From the UHGV virus genome UHGV-0047852: 11,553 nucleotides of DNA, one strand, 5' to 3'. Below are positions 1,609 through 11,478 of the stretch, one piece after another; the first letter of the stretch is position 1; each line of letters opens with the position of its first letter. This DNA comes from a virus. The notes under the pieces were generated by a model. The model did no database searches. It had not been told where the DNA came from and was given only the letters and a program-made list of their open reading frames with translations. Made by a program: the position numbers and the translations under genes.

Positions 1609-1850
1609 TTATCATCTCCATAAAACAAAACCCGCCGTAGCGAGTTCAGATAAAAGAAATCCTCGTCAGTGCGAGGATGCTGTTCATTGCTGCTATACAC
1701 TTTTTTGCTCTCAACGTAAGCGGTAGCCCATTCTGTTGGGTTGGTGCAGTTGCTTTTAGGAAATGCTATTTACCCCTTAAATGTCGGCTGAAAGAGCTAA
1801 AATCCATGCAAAAAATTTACGCAATTTTGTGTATTATTGTGCAGTAAGTA

Positions 1851-2453
1851 ATGAGCTATTTTCTGCGCAAAAAATGGATGGTAAATTTGTCCGGGTCAGG
1901 AAAAATTTTATGGGCGCTAAACATGAAAAAAGATTCGTATCCTTATTTGATTTGCATGACAGTTTCAGGGCTGATCTTTATTTTCCTTTTCTTCTGGTGG
2001 CGGGCAGATATCTACAGGGTCACGTTTCTTAATCAGAGTATATCCCACTATTACATTCTGTTTAGCATGGGAATAGCTTTTCTGTTATCTCTGTTTTGGG
2101 TTAAGAAGGGGATAGTAAAACAAAGCGGCTGGAAGAGTCTGTCAGCATACCTTAAGGTTTATGCAGGGATGTGCATATTTGCTGGATTTTTTCTGATTAT
2201 ACCCCTTACGACACTAACTTATTTTTTGCCTGGAGAGACATCGTCTTATGTTGCACCGTATCGGTATACTTCCGGTAGTTCAAAAAGTTGTTCTGGAGCT
2301 GAGGTGGATGACCCCGATCTACATGAGAATATTCGCATTTGCTATCCGTATGGCAATTATGAGTACGATAATATTATCTATGTTGAAAAGAAAATTAATA
2401 TATTAGGTGCGGTAGTGACATATGCACAGACCGCGCGTGATGATACTGAATGA
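1851..2453 (+). CDS. Hypothetical integral membrane protein (200 aa; about 3 N-terminal TM helices plus a hydrophilic C-terminal domain of about 80 aa); moron in the ea8.5/ea22 position
   Basis: 200-codon open frame in AT-rich DNA where stops are frequent; hydrophobic stretches YLICMTVSGLIFIFLFFWW, YYILFSMGIAFLLSLFWV, VYAGMCIFAGFFLIIPLTTLTYFL. Opposite strand to flanking phage genes. No strong SD at any candidate start (1851, 1878, 1923), so the start is uncertain. Confidence 0.6.
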   Translation: MSYFLRKKWMVNLSGSGKILWALNMKKDSYPYLICMTVSGLIFIFLFFWWRADIYRVTFLNQSISHYYILFSMGIAFLLSLFWVKKGIVKQSGWKSLSAYLKVYAGMCIFAGFFLIIPLTTLTYFLPGETSSYVAPYRYTSGSSKSCSGAEVDDPDLHENIRICYPYGNYEYDNIIYVEKKINILGAVVTYAQTARDDTE

Positions 2454-2487
2454 TATAGTATATAGCGGGCAAGTTTTAGTTAATTTA

Positions 2488-2520
2488 TCGAGGTAATATA
2501 ATTTACCTCGACTCGTTTGT
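2488..2520 (+). terminator. Candidate intrinsic terminator downstream of the membrane-protein gene (TCGAGGTAA-tataat-TTACCTCGA, then CTCGTTTGTT)
   Basis: Perfect 9-bp inverted repeat with 6-nt loop about 35 nt after the stop codon; the T-tract is interrupted. Confidence 0.4.
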
Positions 2521-2663
2521 TCTGGTATTAATATTTCGCTTTACGACCGATTTTTATCTGATGATATCATGCGGTTTTCATATACTGACTTACTGTCTTT
2601 TCTCCGTTAGCGATTTTCTCCTGCTCAGCGATGATTTTATCTTTGGCTTCTAGTTAATTTCGC

Positions 2664-2885
2664 TCACTTCGAACCTCTCTGTTTACTGATAAGCTCCAGA
2701 TCTTGCTGGCAACTGGCACAAGTCCGACAACCCTGAACGGCCAGTCGTCTTCGTTCATCTATCGGATCGCCACACTCACAACAATGAGTGGCAGATATAG
2801 CCTGGTGGTTCAGGCGGCGCATTTTTATTGCTGTGTTGCGCTGTAATTCTTCAATTTCTGATGCTGAATCAATTATGTCTGCCAT
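2664..2885 (-). CDS. TraR/DksA-family C4 zinc-finger protein (73 aa)
   Basis: Two CxxC pairs (CCECGD … CRTCASC) in a 73-aa protein, typical of phage TraR-like proteins. Stop overlaps a 5-codon remnant of the ea22 start (GTGAGCGAAATTAAC-TAG, minus strand 2650-2667). Confidence 0.8.
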   Translation of the reverse strand: MADIIDSASEIEELQRNTAIKMRRLNHQAISATHCCECGDPIDERRRLAVQGCRTCASCQQDLELISKQRGSK

Positions 2886-2983: not shown

Positions 2984-3199
2984 TCACCGTTCCTTAAAGA
3001 CGCCGTTCAACATGCCGATCGCCAGGCTTAAATGAGTCGGTGTGAATCCCATCAGCGTTACCGTTTCGCGGTGCTTCTTCAGTACGCTACGGCAAATGTC
3101 ATCGACGTTTTTATCCGGAAACTGCTGTCTGGCTTTTTTGATTTCAGAATTAGCCTGACGGGCAATACTGCGAAGGGCGTTATTATGTTCTATTGTCAT
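2984..3199 (-). CDS. Lambda orf61-like small protein (71 aa from MTIEHNNALRSIARQ…)
   Basis: Internal ATG at 3199 has a GAGG SD 5 nt upstream; the 117-aa track ORF is an N-terminal over-extension. The C-terminal two-thirds matches my recollection of lambda orf61. Confidence 0.65.
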   Translation of the reverse strand: MTIEHNNALRSIARQANSEIKKARQQFPDKNVDDICRSVLKKHRETVTLMGFTPTHLSLAIGMLNGVFKER

Positions 3200-3206
3200 A
3201 TTGGCC

Positions 3207-3958
3207 TCACACTTCGAATGCCAGTTGAGGGGTAAAGACGTCCCGTTCAGCGTTGTAATTAAGTGAACTGGCACTGTTGAATGATTCAATGCGTTCCACA
3301 AGAACTTGCGTACGGGTTTCTTTACTTGCGGGAGCATATGGCGAACCTACCCAGGATTTGTCGATGCCTATATTTCTTGCGACGTTCGTGCTGTCTGCAG
3401 ACGAAAGCGGTACATGAGTAAAAATGTCTTTATTTAACATCCGTAACCCATGAATCTTGGTGATTGGGTAGCCGTACTGATCTACAACATGACGTATAAG
3501 ATCGCGTAGTTTAGCCCGACACGCTCTCGGTCGTTTTGCATCGTATTCCCCCATCGAGCCGATGCAGACGCGGGGAAACTCATGGCACAGACGAATAAAT
3601 CGCTCATCTGGTTCGTTCATGTGCCACACCGGAGCACCAATAAATTTACCGTGAGGCCATGCCGCAATCAGGGCGTCATTCTCTTCACTGGTTCCGCCGA
3701 TAACATCCGGGATAACCGCGAATGAGAAACGAGGGTGATTGCCCCAGCGTTCAACAAATTGTAATATTCATTCCAGTCTACGGCCTTGTTTTTTGTCCAG
3801 AATGTGAATGCACCATTATCAAGAGCAAATGATTGGGTGACTTCGGAAGCCAGATCAATCTGAGCTGGATTAGCAAAACTGATGAATGCGTGTCTGCCTT
3901 TCCAGGCTTTCAACGCACAGGTATCGGGAGTTATTGGACCACCGTGAAAATGAATCAT
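3207..3958 (-). pseudogene. Frameshifted gene for an unrecognised protein of about 250 aa (N-terminal part [31 protein letters not shown]…; C-terminal part …AVIPDVIGGTSEENDALIAAWPHGKFIGAPVWHMNEPDERF…QLAFEV) occupying the lambda orf63 position
   Basis: Two adjacent minus-strand ORFs (3668..3958 and 3207..3629) in different frames; extending the downstream frame upstream gives continuous plausible protein back to about 3768, so a single 1-nt indel near 3760-3770 would join them. The ATG at 3958 overlaps the orf60a-like stop (ATGA). Confidence 0.6.
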
Positions 3959-4113
3959 ACACTCTCCCGTTTATTATTTATCTCCTCAGCCAGCCGCTGG
4001 GCTTTCAGCGGATTTCGGATAACAGAAAGGCCGGGAAATACCCAGCCTCGCTTTGTAACGGAGTAGACGAAAGTGATCGCGCCTACCCGGATATTATCGT
4101 GAGGATGCGTCAT
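3955..4113 (-). CDS. Lambda orf60a-like small protein (52 aa, [52 protein letters not shown])
   Basis: Hand-translated; ATG overlaps the exo stop (ATGA) as in lambda; C-terminus diverges from lambda. Confidence 0.65.
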
Positions 4114-4790
4114 CGCCATTGCTCCCCAAATACAAAACCAATTTCAGCCAGTGCCTCGTCCATTTTTTCGATGAACTCCGGCACCATCTCGTCAAAACTC
4201 GCTATGTACTTTTCATCCCGCTCAACCACGACATAATGCAGGCCTTCACGCTTCATCCGCGGGTCATAGTTGGCAAAGTACCAGGCATCTTTTCGCGTCA
4301 CCCACATGCTGTACTGCACCTGGGCCATGTAAGCCGACTTTATGGCCTCGAAACCACCGAGCCGGAACTTCATGAAATCCCGGGAGGTAAACGGGCATTT
4401 CAGCTCAAGGCCATTGCCGTCACTGCATAAACCATCGGGAGAGCAGGCGGTGCGCATACTTTCGTCGCGATAGATGATCGGGGATTCAGTAACATTCACG
4501 CCGGAAGTGAACTCAAACAGGGTTCTGGCGTCGTTCTCGTACTGTTTTCCCCAGGCCAGTGCCTTAGCGTTAACTTCCGGAGCCACACCGGTGCAAACCT
4601 CGGCAAGCAGGGTGTGGAAGTAGGACATTTTCATGTCAGGCCATTTCTTTCCGGAGCGGGGTTTTGCTATCACATTGTGAACCTCTGAAGCGGTGATGAC
4701 GCCGAGCCGTAATTTGTGCCACGCATCATCCCCCTGTTCGACAGCTCTCACGTCGATCCCGGTACGCTGCAGTATAATGTCCGGTGTCAT
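4110..4790 (-). CDS. exo: Lambda exonuclease Exo (Red-alpha, 226 aa)
   Basis: Translation [65 protein letters not shown]… matches lambda Exo. Confidence 0.97.
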
Positions 4791-5950: not shown

Positions 5951-6157
5951 TTAGTGATTCAGGCCGTTACCGCGTCCGTCGAGAAAAACTTCCACGAGCA
6001 AATCACGGGTATAAGTGCGCTCGATGCCGCGATGCAGATAAAGCCGTCCGCGTAAATTAGCTGATGCAGTCCAGGTACCATCTTTGTGTTTGACCAGCAT
6101 TCCTGGCATGACCGCACCTCGATTAACGGTCTGCGTTCCGTAATGTTGATGAACCAT
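5951..6157 (-). CDS. Hypothetical small protein in the lambda kil position (68 aa from MVHQHYGTQTVNRGAV…; alternative upstream start at 6241 gives 96 aa)
   Basis: ATG at 6157 has AGGAG SD with 5-nt spacer; the protein does not resemble lambda Kil or cIII. Confidence 0.5.
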   Translation of the reverse strand: MVHQHYGTQTVNRGAVMPGMLVKHKDGTWTASANLRGRLYLHRGIERTYTRDLLVEVFLDGRGNGLNH

Positions 6158-6434
6158 AAAAACTCCTGCCCGTAAGCTGGGCTGCTGAACATATAAAGAC
6201 TTCTGCGCGTATTCAGGCGGTGGATGGCCGCCGGTTGTCATAACTAAGCCGCCTCGTTGAAGCGACTAAGGTATGAAATGTTGAGTTAATTTCAGCTGGT
6301 CACACCGACGTTCACGCGTCCGTTTCACCCCTCGCACTCCCCGAAGCCTGCTGAAATTCAAACTGCGGATCTAAGCGGTCATCGCAACGGTGAATCAGGT
6401 AGTTGCCGTATCGTTGTGTTGTTGCGATGAACTT

Positions 6435-6463
6435 ATTTAAAACTATAGTTGTTTTATCGTCAA
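6435..6463 (-). promoter_or_regulatory. Candidate leftward early promoter pL (-35 TTGACG, 17-bp spacer, -10 TTAAAT) embedded in operator repeats
   Basis: Minus strand TTGACGataaaacaactatagttTTAAAT is closely parallel to the PR element at 7491-7519 (TTGACTaaaaacaaccatagtttTAATCT). Confidence 0.5.
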
Positions 6464-6512
6464 CAACAAAAGTTGTTTTATTGGTTGTTTTAGATATAAC
6501 TGGTTGTATTTA
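6448..6512. repeat. OL operator repeat array: three direct copies of GTTGTTTTA (6448-6456, 6472-6480, 6484-6492) plus GGTTGTATTTA, sharing the GGTTGT half-site with OR
   Basis: Repeats visible directly; the same GGTTGT/ACAACC half-sites form a palindrome at OR. Confidence 0.55.
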
Positions 6513-6602
6513 GGATGGATTTATTTTGTGACTTGAATCGCATAGCGATAACTGAAGCGAGGTTATGGTGGTTTTTTTAACGGTGTGTGTGATGAGGGGA
6601 GG

Positions 6603-6631
6603 GCAAAAGAAAACCCGGCACGGTGACCGGG
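6603..6631 (-). terminator. Intrinsic terminator on minus strand downstream of the repressor gene (CCCGG-8 nt loop-CCGGG followed by UUUUCUUUUG)
   Basis: Plus strand GCAAAAGAAAACCCGGCACGGTGACCGGG; the reverse complement gives a hairpin plus U-tract about 120 nt past the repressor stop. Confidence 0.55.
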
Positions 6632-6752
6632 ATTCTTACGCCGTTAGGTAAAGATATTATTGCGGTGGCTTAATATTACTACCTAGAGCAAAGATAGGAA
6701 TTAGTTCTTTACTGAATGAGCACAATGCCCAGTTGATAATTTTTAATTGGTA

Positions 6753-7442
6753 CTACCCATGCTTCCTATATGTCTGCGGCATGCTCCCAATAACCTTACC
6801 GAAGATGAACACCCGGTTCATCTCGTCTTTCTCGATCGGGTCCCACGGTGAGTAGCTTTTGTTATCAGAGATGACCAGCAGCTTATCCTTCATCATTTGC
6901 AGGCGCTTTACATGGGCTGTGTCGTCGTACAGAAACGCATAGATACCATCACCGTCGAAAGATTTAACTGTGATATCAACGAACAGCAGATCACCTGGTT
7001 CGATCGTTCCTGACATGCTGTCACCACGCACGTTAATGATGCGGATATTTTCCGCCTTCCTACCATCGAACATGTGACGAGCATCGTCAAACGAGTACTC
7101 AACCGAGCGTAGAACTTCTACAAACTCACGGTTGATGACTCCCGGCCCAGCACTGACTTCTATATCAAGAACGTCAATCTTGAAGTATTTGGAATGGCTG
7201 ACAGTTGATTGTATTGGTTGCACTGTACTGTCTGACATATTTCCAACGCCAGAAGATAACCATTCTGCGCGCACACCCAAAGCGTTCGCGATCTCCACGA
7301 TTTTAGTTGTTTGATTAGCTTTCCCTGTTTCGATTTTCTGAATAGCAGCCTGGCTAACCCCGACCAAATCCCCAAGCGCCTTTTGTGTAAGGCCTCGCGC
7401 TAATCTGGCTTCTTTAAGTCTTTCTGAGAGTGTTGTTTTCAT
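6753..7442 (-). CDS. CI-like prophage repressor (229 aa; N-terminal XRE-type HTH, C-terminal LexA/S24 peptidase-like autocleavage domain)
   Basis: HTH region LARGLTQKALGDLVGVSQAAIQKIETGK; S24 signature GDSMSGTIEPGDLLFVD with downstream KRL. Start chosen at MKTTLSERLKEA (7442); the 251-aa track ORF runs into the operator. Confidence 0.85.
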   Translation of the reverse strand: MKTTLSERLKEARLARGLTQKALGDLVGVSQAAIQKIETGKANQTTKIVEIANALGVRAEWLSSGVGNMSDSTVQPIQSTVSHSKYFKIDVLDIEVSAGPGVINREFVEVLRSVEYSFDDARHMFDGRKAENIRIINVRGDSMSGTIEPGDLLFVDITVKSFDGDGIYAFLYDDTAHVKRLQMMKDKLLVISDNKSYSPWDPIEKDEMNRVFIFGKVIGSMPQTYRKHG

Positions 7443-7450
7443 AGTCCAAA

Positions 7451-7519
7451 TGTACAACCAAGGTTTTATTCCATCAAACGAAAATGGTTGTTGACTAAAA
7501 ACAACCATAGTTTTAATCT
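7451..7519 (+). promoter_or_regulatory. OR/PR region: 25-bp palindromic operator ATGGTTGTTGACTAAAAACAACCAT (7484-7508), extra half-site TGTACAACCA (7451-7460), PR -35 TTGACT (7491-7496) and -10 TAATCT (7514-7519); divergent PRM-like element for the repressor on the minus strand
   Basis: Perfect dyad symmetry, 17-bp spacer promoter, GGAGG SD before the cro-like ATG at 7547. On the minus strand TTGATG-17-TACATT ends 6 nt before the repressor ATG, suggesting a leaderless transcript. Confidence 0.65.
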
Positions 7520-10009: not shown

Positions 10010-11092
10010 TTAGAACTGGTAAACCATACCTACAGCAACGATATCATCGGTAGCAACGCCAGATGCTTTCGTGAAATCGCTCTTATCAATCAGGTTGATT
10101 TTGTAGTCAACAAAAGTGGACATATTTTTGTTGAAGTAATAGGTTGCACCTACATCAACATACTCAACCAGGTCCTGATCACCCCAAACACCCAAGTCTT
10201 TTCCTTTAGAATGCAGGTAAGCAACGGATGGACGCAGGCCGAAGTCGAACTGATATTGTGCAACAGCTTCGAAGTTTTGTGCTTTGTTGGCAATATGGTT
10301 ATTACCAAAAACAGTCATGTTCTGGGTTTCAGAATAGGTGGTGGCCAGATAGATGTTGTTCGCATCATATTTCAGACCAGCTGCCCATACTTCAGCATTT
10401 TGACCAGAAGCATTCAGACCGTTGTTACCGTAGATAACCTGATTATTAGTGCGATCAGATTTAGCATAGGTTGCACCCACGCCGAATCCTTCATACTCAT
10501 AAGTAGTTGAGAAACCGAAACCATCGCCATTAGTTTCAGTTACTTCATTTCGGTCATTTTTGCCCTGATACTGAGCTGCAAAGTTCAGGCCATCAACCAG
10601 ACCAAAGAAGTCGTTGTTACGATAAGTTGCAACACCTGTGGTGCGACCAGTCATGAATACATCTGTTTGGGTCCAGGTATCGCCACCGAATTCTGGCAGA
10701 ACGTCGGTCCATGCACCAATATCGTATGCTACACCGTAGTTACGGCCATAATCGATGGAGCCGTAGTCACCGAATTTCAGGCCAGCGAAGGCAAGACGGG
10801 TTTTATCTTTGGAGGAACCTTGAGATTCAGCGCGGTTGCCTTTGAATTCATATTCCCACTGACCGAAACCAGTCAGTTGATCGTTGATTTGGGTTTCACC
10901 TTTGAAGCCAAGACGGGCATAAGTAGTATCACCATCATCTGCATCATTAGAGGAGAAGTAGTGCTTAGCATTAACTTTCCCGTACAGATCCAGCTTGTTA
11001 CTGTCTTTATTATAAATTTCAGCTGCCTGAGCAGACATCGCCATCAGTACTGATGCAGCTACAGCAGAAATTGCCACTGTTAATTTTTTCAT
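10010..11092 (-). CDS. nmpC: Outer membrane general porin, NmpC/OmpC family (about 360 aa with signal peptide [23 protein letters not shown]), apparently intact
   Basis: Signal peptide then [16 protein letters not shown], typical of OmpC/OmpF/NmpC porins; C-terminal …VAVGMVYQF ending in Phe. Opposite strand to quuD, as nmpC is in DLP12. Confidence 0.9.
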
Positions 11093-11478
11093 CGTGAGAC
11101 CTTTTTTTGAACATTTATTAAAAAATGATGCCCTGCGCGACAAATATTCATCTAATCAATGTGATTAATTCAAGATGTAAGTTTTAGATTCTTATTTAAA
11201 TTGTGATCTAGATCTCTATTTTTATCTGAACTTTTTCTAATGCATGCTGTGCATGACTATTCTCTGAAAGAAAATAAATTTGGTAGCTAAATTATATTAA
11301 AGGTTGTTATTTATAAGTGTTCTATAATTCATCTCTTTAATTTAAATTCACTGAAAATAACGTCGGAAATTATTTAATGATTATTTGTTTATTTTTCCTT
11401 ATGTGATTGTGGTGGTGTTTTGAACACTCGATATCATTCTCACAAATATTGTTTAGAGGTTTACGTACGTAAAAAATT

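Follow-up and report, generated by a model that had tools for sequence, protein, structure and literature searches.

A mobile single-gene cassette, or "moron", occupies positions 1786-2530 of an 11,553-nucleotide stretch of the virus genome UHGV-0047852, read on one strand from 5' to 3'. This whole stretch is referred to below as the window; it represents the left arm of a lambda-like prophage. The cassette consists of a conserved upstream region, an open reading frame (ORF) for a protein of 176 residues and a terminator hairpin. The gene is real and under purifying selection, and one cassette is shared by lambdoid and P2-like prophages, the P2-like copies being 52-78% identical to the window protein. 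The protein, predicted to be an inner-membrane protein, is a good but unproven candidate for a factor that keeps other phages out. It is uncharacterised, yet its sequence is not new, because databases and one published catalogue already contain it.

A selected gene in a cassette shared by lambdoid and P2-like prophages

The first-pass annotation of the window had described one plus-strand gene at 1851-2453, opposite in direction to the phage genes, which encodes a membrane protein of 200 residues. The ORF is present as described; the length of its product had to be revised. The protein was matched by 74 database clusters, in which the members below about 80% identity are 169-180 residues long and begin at the residue aligned with Met25 of the 200-residue ORF. 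Met25 (the ATG at 1923) is invariant and is the start residue in all diverged homologues. In addition, the upstream start codons are broken in diverged copies. For example, the 78%-identical Escherichia coli copy (locus L014) has no ATG equal to that at 1851 and its frame from Met10 runs into a stop, and the 71%-identical Salmonella copy (L005) has the ATG equal to 1851 directly before a TAG. Because the diverged homologues start at Met25 and the upstream starts are broken, the translated gene is most likely 1923-2453. The calls of 200 residues (RefSeq and mEp332) and 188 residues (phage 434) are most likely extensions into the leader.

The ratio of nonsynonymous to synonymous divergence (dN/dS) was 0.09-0.16 against those diverged copies for which dS was unsaturated (synonymous divergence 0.57-0.72). 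The C-terminal domain had the lower ratio (0.05-0.10) and the membrane part the higher one (0.10-0.23). These values indicate a real gene under purifying selection. The inconsistent start between records (200, 188 and 176 residues), a weak Shine-Dalgarno sequence and a degraded Ea22-like gene next door could be taken as signs of a decaying or spurious ORF without function. That explanation is extremely improbable and is effectively refuted by the dN/dS values. Also, 32 alignment columns are invariant even though identity falls as low as 42%, AlphaFold gives a confident model, and the architecture is kept in the Proteus, Providencia and Pseudomonas members.

The cassette has several features expected of a moron. 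First, it sits between genes that are adjacent in related phages. Secondly, its composition differs from that of the surrounding genome: the guanine-cytosine (GC) content in 200-nucleotide windows was 0.345-0.41 across 1701-2700 and 0.43-0.55 outside, and that of 1705-2650 was 0.383, with 0.451 in the left flank and 0.500 in the right flank. The AT-rich segment reported at first pass is thus real, though the shift is moderate in size. Third, it has its own terminator, on pattern-level evidence. The hairpin that had been noticed past the gene lies at 2488-2511, folds with -18.2 kcal/mol (z = -2.4) and recurs, apart from one mismatch and one wobble pair, in the P2-like copy of 76% identity. A search of 1400-2900 against Rfam gave nothing credible and placed no family on the non-coding parts. 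No match to 2454-2670 was found in 50,697 phage records outside the phage group to which the window belongs.

The window and the E. coli P2-like copy are homologous in DNA over 1786-2543, at 76% identity, and the Salmonella P2-like copy is homologous over 1827-2421, with the upstream part 71% identical. Thus, the gene moves between lambdoid and P2-like prophages together with about 115-135 nucleotides of upstream DNA and with the terminator. The upstream DNA contains a repeat, TTGTGT-N4-TTGTGCAG, at 1827-1844 and an extended -10-like element, TGnTAAATT, at 1879-1887, which is kept as TGnTAA(A/T/G)TT in five of the six diverged copies. A putative promoter is located at this element, and transcription from it would start near 1894, downstream of the three rejected start codons.

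Two other coding calls in this region were rejected. The 434 and mEp332 records give a 56-residue ORF at 1677-1847 on the plus strand as a "putative membrane protein", but this call is probably an artefact of annotation. The ORF lies across both the left junction and the conserved upstream region, has no RefSeq/PGAP call and no family match, and is not conserved in the P2-like copies, whose homology begins at 1786-1827. The "ORF-22+" of the old phage 434 record M60848, which lies in a different frame, was also rejected as a gene.

The same gene was present, with 98.8-100% DNA identity, in phages 434, mEp332 and 2B8, and in 434 and mEp332 it occupies the same locus, as the first-pass annotation had proposed to check in lambda-like prophages. 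No other copy was found in the 50,697 phage records, tblastn included, which leaves three distinct phages. Among bacterial genomes the gene is common: 906 of 5,426 complete E. coli genomes (about 17%) carry it, nearly all with at least 99% identity, including strain 042 and the O104:H4 strain C227-11. It is found in many E. coli prophages. The existing entries (CPT_434_36, UMO75300.1, in phage 434; XSB40999.1 in mEp332; RefSeq WP_000120065.1 and WP_000120064.1) are labelled "putative membrane protein" or "hypothetical protein" and differ in start, giving 188 or 200 residues.

Copies in P2-like prophages, with 78, 71, 59 and 55% identity, were found in E. coli, Salmonella (two lineages) and Klebsiella michiganensis. 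All four independent, diverged copies sit between the portal gene (gpQ) and gpA, which is the tin/old hotspot. The gene is always single there and its neighbours vary (StbA/Plasmid_stab_B, a YafO toxin, an AAA_16 protein and small ORFs). Its GC content is 0.38-0.44 against 0.51-0.56 in the flanks at three of the four loci; at the fourth (L017) further AT-rich cargo forms the left flank. Besides old and tin, many validated defence systems are located in the gpQ-gpA hotspot (Rousset et al. 2022, PMC9122126). Table S5B of that study lists a "System #4" with no Pfam domain, "3 TM" and 470 occurrences; by frequency it ranks fourth among the "systems" of this hotspot in E. coli P2-like prophages. 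The System #4 protein is 52% identical to the window protein over 168 residues (E 5e-57). Its sequence is not in the table of cloned constructs of that study, and System #4 appears to have been catalogued without cloning. Given phage 434, the 906 E. coli genomes and this catalogue entry, the protein, named at first pass as the strongest candidate for an undescribed function, is uncharacterised but had been recorded before.

Chromosomal copies were also found. In six Enterobacter species a syntenic, vertically inherited orthologue with both flanks conserved and a host-like GC content of 0.50-0.53 follows a same-strand LysR-family regulator gene at a distance of 16 nucleotides (L011 5085-6510; L025-L028, L032), an arrangement that suggests co-transcription or local regulation. 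A Klebsiella chromosomal copy, likewise GC-adapted with a GC content of 0.554 (flanks 0.58-0.595) lies among ordinary genes. A Cedecea copy is AT-rich (0.41 against about 0.51) and adjoins an integrase-like remnant. In a separate observation, a 3,561-bp contig binned as "Candidatus Nanosynbacter" (L023, JARKOR010000073.1) encodes a protein 99% identical to the window protein, and the products of its exo and bet genes are about 99% identical as well. Misbinning or contamination almost certainly explains this contig.

The upstream sequence and the distribution both bear on a role in the life cycle of the phage itself, such as lysis control, entry of its own DNA or establishment of lysogeny, for example as a CII-activated gene. 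The 434 record marks a TTGY-N6-TTGY motif (window 1827-1840, L001 2678-2691) as a "CII site", and three-transmembrane proteins include the class I holins. The site was rejected as evidence for control by CII: the motif is kept in P2-like copies that have no CII, and in one of these the second repeat is TCGT. The gene is also missing from lambda and most lambdoid phages, with three distinct phages among the 50,697 records, is no part of the lysis cassette, has the opposite strand orientation and is found at non-phage chromosomal loci. A life-cycle role is thus very unlikely.

Predicted architecture and candidate roles of the protein

Hydropathy gave three transmembrane (TM) segments, at residues 32-51, 67-85 and 104-126 in 200-residue numbering, followed by a hydrophilic, net-acidic tail of 74 residues. 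The three helices predicted at first pass stood in both the hydropathy and the AlphaFold analyses; the tail had been given as 80 residues. AlphaFold2, run on the family alignment, placed three long helices and five strands with a mean predicted local distance difference test (pLDDT) score of 84.5, with a short strand in the conserved TM1-TM2 loop (IYRVTFL). The tail modelled alone reached a pLDDT of 91.7. According to these models, the C-terminal domain is a five-stranded OB-like beta-barrel.

The mean number of lysine and arginine residues across 18 homologues was 1.8 in the N-terminus, 4.0 in the TM2-TM3 loop and 1.8 in the TM1-TM2 loop. This bias predicts an N-in, C-out topology, in which the barrel and the TM1-TM2 loop would be periplasmic and the N-terminus and the TM2-TM3 loop cytoplasmic. 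Two cysteines of the tail are invariant, in the motifs CSGAxV and IxICYPxGxY, and are kept in the most distant members (Proteus, Providencia, Pseudomonas); they probably form a periplasmic disulfide. The barrel accounts for 21 of the 32 invariant columns and loop 1 for four; TM2 has none and TM3 has one. This concentration suggests that the functional surface is the predicted periplasmic module, i.e. the barrel and loop 1, and that the helices serve mainly as an anchor.

Searches with the protein gave little. Pfam, NCBIfam and PADLOC contained no match, Pfam had none for any of the 18 aligned members, and the PADLOC-DB 2.0.0 defence models returned 0 families at E values up to 10. In a sequence-profile search of the PDB no E value was lower than 0.37. 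None of the matches by family or structure pointed to any particular envelope function. The sole matching phage-family profile was PHROG 1416 (function unknown). Its match begins late in TM3 and extends over the barrel, 88 C-terminal residues in all, which suggests that the phage gene calls behind the profile had been cut short at an internal Met. When 1.84 billion representative proteins were searched exhaustively with a profile, 61 members only were obtained, nearly all with the same plan, and the named ones belong to the Enterobacterales plus a few Pseudomonas. As a side observation, ten weak repeats of a 3,074-residue protein (P0122) match positions 122-158 of the family profile, within the barrel (E 8e-8). 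Its Pfam matches are sub-threshold only, with adhesin-type repeats among them.

The cassette runs counter to the pL operon and is flanked by tL4/orf55 on one side and the gutted Ea22-like gene on the other. The reading favoured here, by analogy and with a probability somewhat short of even, is that it encodes an envelope protein expressed in the lysogen that blocks the entry of other phages (superinfection exclusion). This reading was chosen because of the cassette form, the orientation against pL, the repeated residence in the P2 hotspot and the periplasm-facing module on a three-TM anchor. In the repressed prophage, the gene would be transcribed from its own weak, extended -10-type promoter. 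In lytic growth, antiterminated pL transcription would run through the gene in antisense and oppose its expression. The periplasm-facing module would protect the lysogen at the step of phage entry as a superinfection-exclusion factor. Its target might be an inner-membrane component used by incoming phages for genome delivery, or the ejection or tape-measure proteins of those phages. As a result, the incoming DNA would not cross the inner membrane, a mode of action like that of P22 SieA and HK97 gp15 by an unrelated protein.

Several points weigh against exclusion. First, a simple sigma-70 consensus scan found no canonical promoter in the upstream region, and the Shine-Dalgarno sequence before the ATG at 1923 is poor. 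Secondly, the literature searched by accession number and phage name held no phenotype, transcript or protein evidence, including no transcript data for a lysogen-active promoter of the gene itself; nor was the gene among the contents of the supplementary files of the Vassallo 2022 screen. Third, no homology to known exclusion or defence proteins was found with PADLOC, SieA or HK97 gp15. Fourth, the gene has GC-adapted syntenic orthologues in six Enterobacter species, and a copy in Klebsiella, among metabolic and regulatory genes, and these chromosomal orthologues point to a cellular envelope role. Fifth, the gene occurs in both siphoviruses and myoviruses, so it is tied to no single injection apparatus. 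Lastly, the P2 hotspot also stores cargo unrelated to defence, namely par (partition) systems and toxins such as cytolethal distending toxin (PMC9122126). The first-pass annotation had read the architecture as that of typical lysogen-expressed cargo. The stand-alone architecture holds and has gained support, with foreign composition, a single gene, its own terminator and a cassette shared with the P2 hotspot. The functional argument from association is weaker than had been assumed, given the Enterobacter orthologues and the non-defence cargo of the hotspot.

Some other leads were rejected. The "transmembrane protein" moron of the LF82 prophage Perceval, transcribed 81-fold above background, is an unrelated gene between kil and cI, in a rexB-like position, and Perceval has no gene at the cassette locus. 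LF82_152 was tested as a relative of the cassette protein and was rejected. The small RNA svsR of prophage NC-SV maps to the 3' end of cI and not to the cassette locus.

The main rival to exclusion is a lysogenic-conversion or host-fitness factor unrelated to phage defence, that is, a phage-borne copy of a chromosomal enterobacterial envelope protein. It could act, for example, in envelope-stress tolerance, in transporter modulation or in immunity to a bacteriocin or contact-dependent toxin that acts in the periplasm or membrane. The benefit to the lysogen would then be direct. The syntenic orthologues in six Enterobacter species (GC 0.50-0.53, 16 nucleotides past the LysR-type gene) and the Klebsiella copy (0.554 against flanks of 0.58-0.595) agree with such a role, as do the absence of a PADLOC match and the par systems and cytolethal distending toxin carried by the P2 hotspot. 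Also, neighbouring morons in such prophages serve host fitness (the porin in the window; sitABCD, NmpC and Bor in LF82). However, the phage-lineage copies are found repeatedly at known sites of anti-phage cargo and travel as a minimal cassette, no toxin or bacteriocin gene is consistently adjacent, and neither a family nor a structure match supports any particular envelope function. A host-fitness role is thus possible, at well below an even chance.

The distribution of conserved residues bears on a further alternative, an abortive-infection effector that depolarises or permeabilises the inner membrane on sensing a phage and so kills the cell ahead of progeny formation, with RexB-like logic in one protein. 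TM proteins are common suicide effectors in defence systems and were read in this way in the P2/P4 hotspot study (PMC9122126), and the gene is located in the P2 hotspot. However, the gene is always single, with varying neighbours and no sensor partner. The periplasmic loop and barrel are the most conserved parts, with zero and one invariant columns in TM2 and TM3, which is the opposite of what would be expected of a pore-former. In addition, the Enterobacter orthologues are stable without an antitoxin-like partner, and about 900 E. coli genomes carry an intact gene. An abortive-infection effector is therefore improbable.

The gene is carried by the classic model phage 434, by about one sixth of the complete E. 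coli genomes and by the O104:H4 outbreak strain, and it has neither a family name nor a structure. If the exclusion reading is correct, the gene would commonly help to set the host range of phages on E. coli and Salmonella, at present unnoticed. It would bear on phage therapy and phage typing and would be an example of one cassette swapped between two unrelated temperate-phage lineages. If the host-envelope role is correct, the gene would be one for lysogenic conversion, widespread and descended from a chromosomal gene of Enterobacter. A broader and quite tentative proposal is that the protein represents an unrecognised class of single-protein, periplasm-facing exclusion factor, recruited from a chromosomal envelope protein of the Enterobacter type. 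In that proposal, a promoter-gene-terminator cassette would be shuttled between lambdoid and P2-like prophages and would account for part of the phage resistance that 434-type prophages confer in about 17% of complete E. coli genomes, including O104:H4, and the disulfide-bonded OB-like barrel would bind an inner-membrane component of genome delivery.

The prophage backbone and the remnants of an Ea22-like gene

The coordinates of the cassette, its parts and the nearest backbone features are collected in Table 1. Past the TraR-like gene the gene order is exo, bet, gam, a kil-like gene and an S24-type repressor. The hairpin at the left edge of the insertion falls inside the feature annotated as t-L4 in M60848. 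It may end those pL transcripts that are not antiterminated, once these have crossed the cassette in antisense. Homology to relatives without the segment (lambda/DE3, O276 and HK106) stops at window position 1678, directly beyond this hairpin, and homology to some Shiga toxin (Stx) phages stops at 1704. Homology to Ea22-bearing phages restarts at 2651, and the 50 bp from 2651 to 2700 match the start region of Ea22 in more than 100 lambdoid and Stx phages. In PhiR11_1, ea8.5-ea22-TraR occupies the same position.

The first-pass annotation had stated that ea8.5 and ea22 are absent and that a five-codon remnant of the ea22 start and a short coiled-coil-like fragment at about 2570-2650 remain. The five-codon remnant was confirmed, as Ea22 of PhiR11_1 also begins VSEIN. 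The short fragment is present too, and its DNA homology indicates that it is the 3' piece of an Ead/Ea22-like gene. The evidence comes from the E. coli P2-like copy L014, in which a convergent Ead/Ea22-like gene (6622-7004, minus strand) lies directly past the membrane gene. This Ea22-like gene is divided between two overlapping frames, as if by a frameshift or an error of sequencing. Its MSEIN-start ORF matches positions 1-63 of the Ead_Ea22 profile (E 4e-14), and the part at 6622-6774 matches positions 71-111 of PF13935 (E 1.4e-6). The DNA of the window fragment is homologous to this second part, a middle portion of an Ead_Ea22 gene, and DWLETKDNRIAELEKIA of L014, which lies within the piece matching positions 71-111, is homologous to the fragment. 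The 28-residue fragment itself gave no hidden Markov model match to Ead_Ea22, being too short to score. The L014 homology and the VSEIN start together indicate that the window retains both ends of an internally deleted Ead/Ea22-like gene. Thus, what is missing relative to lambda is ea8.5, as had been stated, and only the interior of the Ea22-like gene. The published list of hotspot arrangements contains "...hypothetical + Ead_Ea22" beside StbA/Plasmid_stab_B (PMC9122126). The arrangement in L014 indicates that the membrane gene and the convergent Ea22-like gene are exchanged as a pair between lambdoid and P2-like phages.

Other features of the window were recorded in passing. The distance from the TraR-like gene to exo is about 490 bp longer than in mEp332 and the O104:H4 prophage. 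The ORFs at 2984-3337, 3207-3629 and 3668-3958 (all on the minus strand) have no Pfam match, and that at 3955-4119 is a DUF1317 gene. About 500 nucleotides (6242-6752) between the kil-like gene (5951-6241, minus) and the S24-type repressor gene (6753-7508, minus) contain no ORF of at least 40 residues. The equal position in the LF82 prophage Perceval carries two genes that are strongly transcribed in the lysogen (LF82_152/153), and the site to which svsR maps in prophage NC-SV is that at the cI 3' end noted above. In the late region, an OmpC/NmpC-type porin gene (10010-11143, minus; Porin_1, E 4e-152) is a second opposite-strand cargo gene, of a kind found transcribed in LF82 lysogens.

Table 1. 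Positions of the cassette, its parts and the adjoining prophage features in the window
Feature	Position	Strand	Remarks
int	135-1205	minus	
xis	1183-1401	minus	
orf55	1441-1608	minus	
Backbone terminator hairpin (tL4 of phage 434)	1659-1678	minus	Left edge of insertion; terminator-like site in scan
AT-rich segment	1679-2650		Not in lambda-type relatives; cassette plus 3' piece of Ea22-like gene; from GC content and junctions
Upstream region moving with the gene	1786-1922	plus	Putative promoter and leader; conserved in P2-like copies
24-codon N-terminal extension of 200-residue ORF	1851-1922	plus	Probably untranslated leader; absent from non-lambdoid homologues
Gene for 176-residue protein, predicted inner-membrane	1923-2453	plus	Including stop; from invariant Met25, dN/dS, hydropathy and AlphaFold
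TM1 (predicted)	about 1944-2003	plus	
TM2 (predicted)	about 2049-2105	plus	
TM3 (predicted)	about 2160-2228	plus	
Beta-barrel domain (predicted)	2229-2450	plus	
Intrinsic-terminator-like hairpin of cassette	2488-2511	plus	9-bp stem, 6-nucleotide loop, partial U tail CTCGTTTGTT
3' fragment of internally deleted Ead/Ea22-like gene	2567-2653	minus	28 codons plus stop, LEAKDKIIAEQEKIANGEKTVSQYMKTA; DNA homology to L014
5' remnant of Ea22-like gene	2650-2667	minus	GTG-start VSEIN, then stop; overlaps stop of TraR-like gene
TraR/DksA-like gene	2664-2885		Other side of cassette from orf55

Comparison with known systems

The window protein was compared with four known kinds of protein. Short NfeD-like proteins have about 150-175 residues, N-terminal TM helices and a C-terminal five-stranded OB-like barrel. 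The window protein appears to have the same gross plan of a membrane anchor and a C-terminal OB-fold barrel, and one weak match to an NfeD-like viral protein was obtained in BFVD (E 0.04). Neither the NfeD Pfam domain nor an adjacent SPFH/stomatin gene, which together mark NfeD membership, was found.

SieA of phage P22 is an inner-membrane protein of 162-164 residues with three TM segments that blocks DNA injection (PMC10883804). It is similar in size to the window protein (176 residues) and in its three TM segments, although the inner-membrane location is shown for SieA and predicted here. Also, both are encoded by prophage genes on the strand opposite to their neighbours, with a promoter of its own in SieA and a putative one here. 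A common family is not indicated: the hhalign probability for SieA (types A-C) was 0.2%, SieA matches PHROG 7745 while the window family matches PHROG 1416 only, and the C-terminal motif of SieA, FxRYPxEAxxFNK, is absent from the family alignment. That motif is predicted to be cytoplasmic, whereas the conserved module of the window protein is a cysteine-containing beta-barrel predicted to be periplasmic. In addition, SieA is confined to P22-like prophages, where it lies between genes 16 and 9.

HK97 gp15 is described as a superinfection-exclusion moron (Cumby et al. 2012, cited in PMC11436027). Like the cassette, this moron of a lambdoid-type phage consists of one gene followed by a terminator of its own, and it encodes a small membrane protein. 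It differs in its length of 62 residues, in its location inside the tail gene block and in having no periplasmic domain. The hhalign probability for gp15 was 1.2%. Since the family tests failed for both SieA and gp15, the claim made here is that the window protein may work like them, not that it is one of them.

System #4 (Rousset 2022) belongs to the same protein family. The P2-like copies catalogued there and the window copy differ in their residence, which is the gpQ-gpA site of P2-like myovirus prophages for System #4 and the int-proximal accessory region of a lambdoid prophage for the window. They share the predicted plan of three TM segments plus a barrel, the CSGA...ICYPxGxY motif and the organisation as a single-gene unit.

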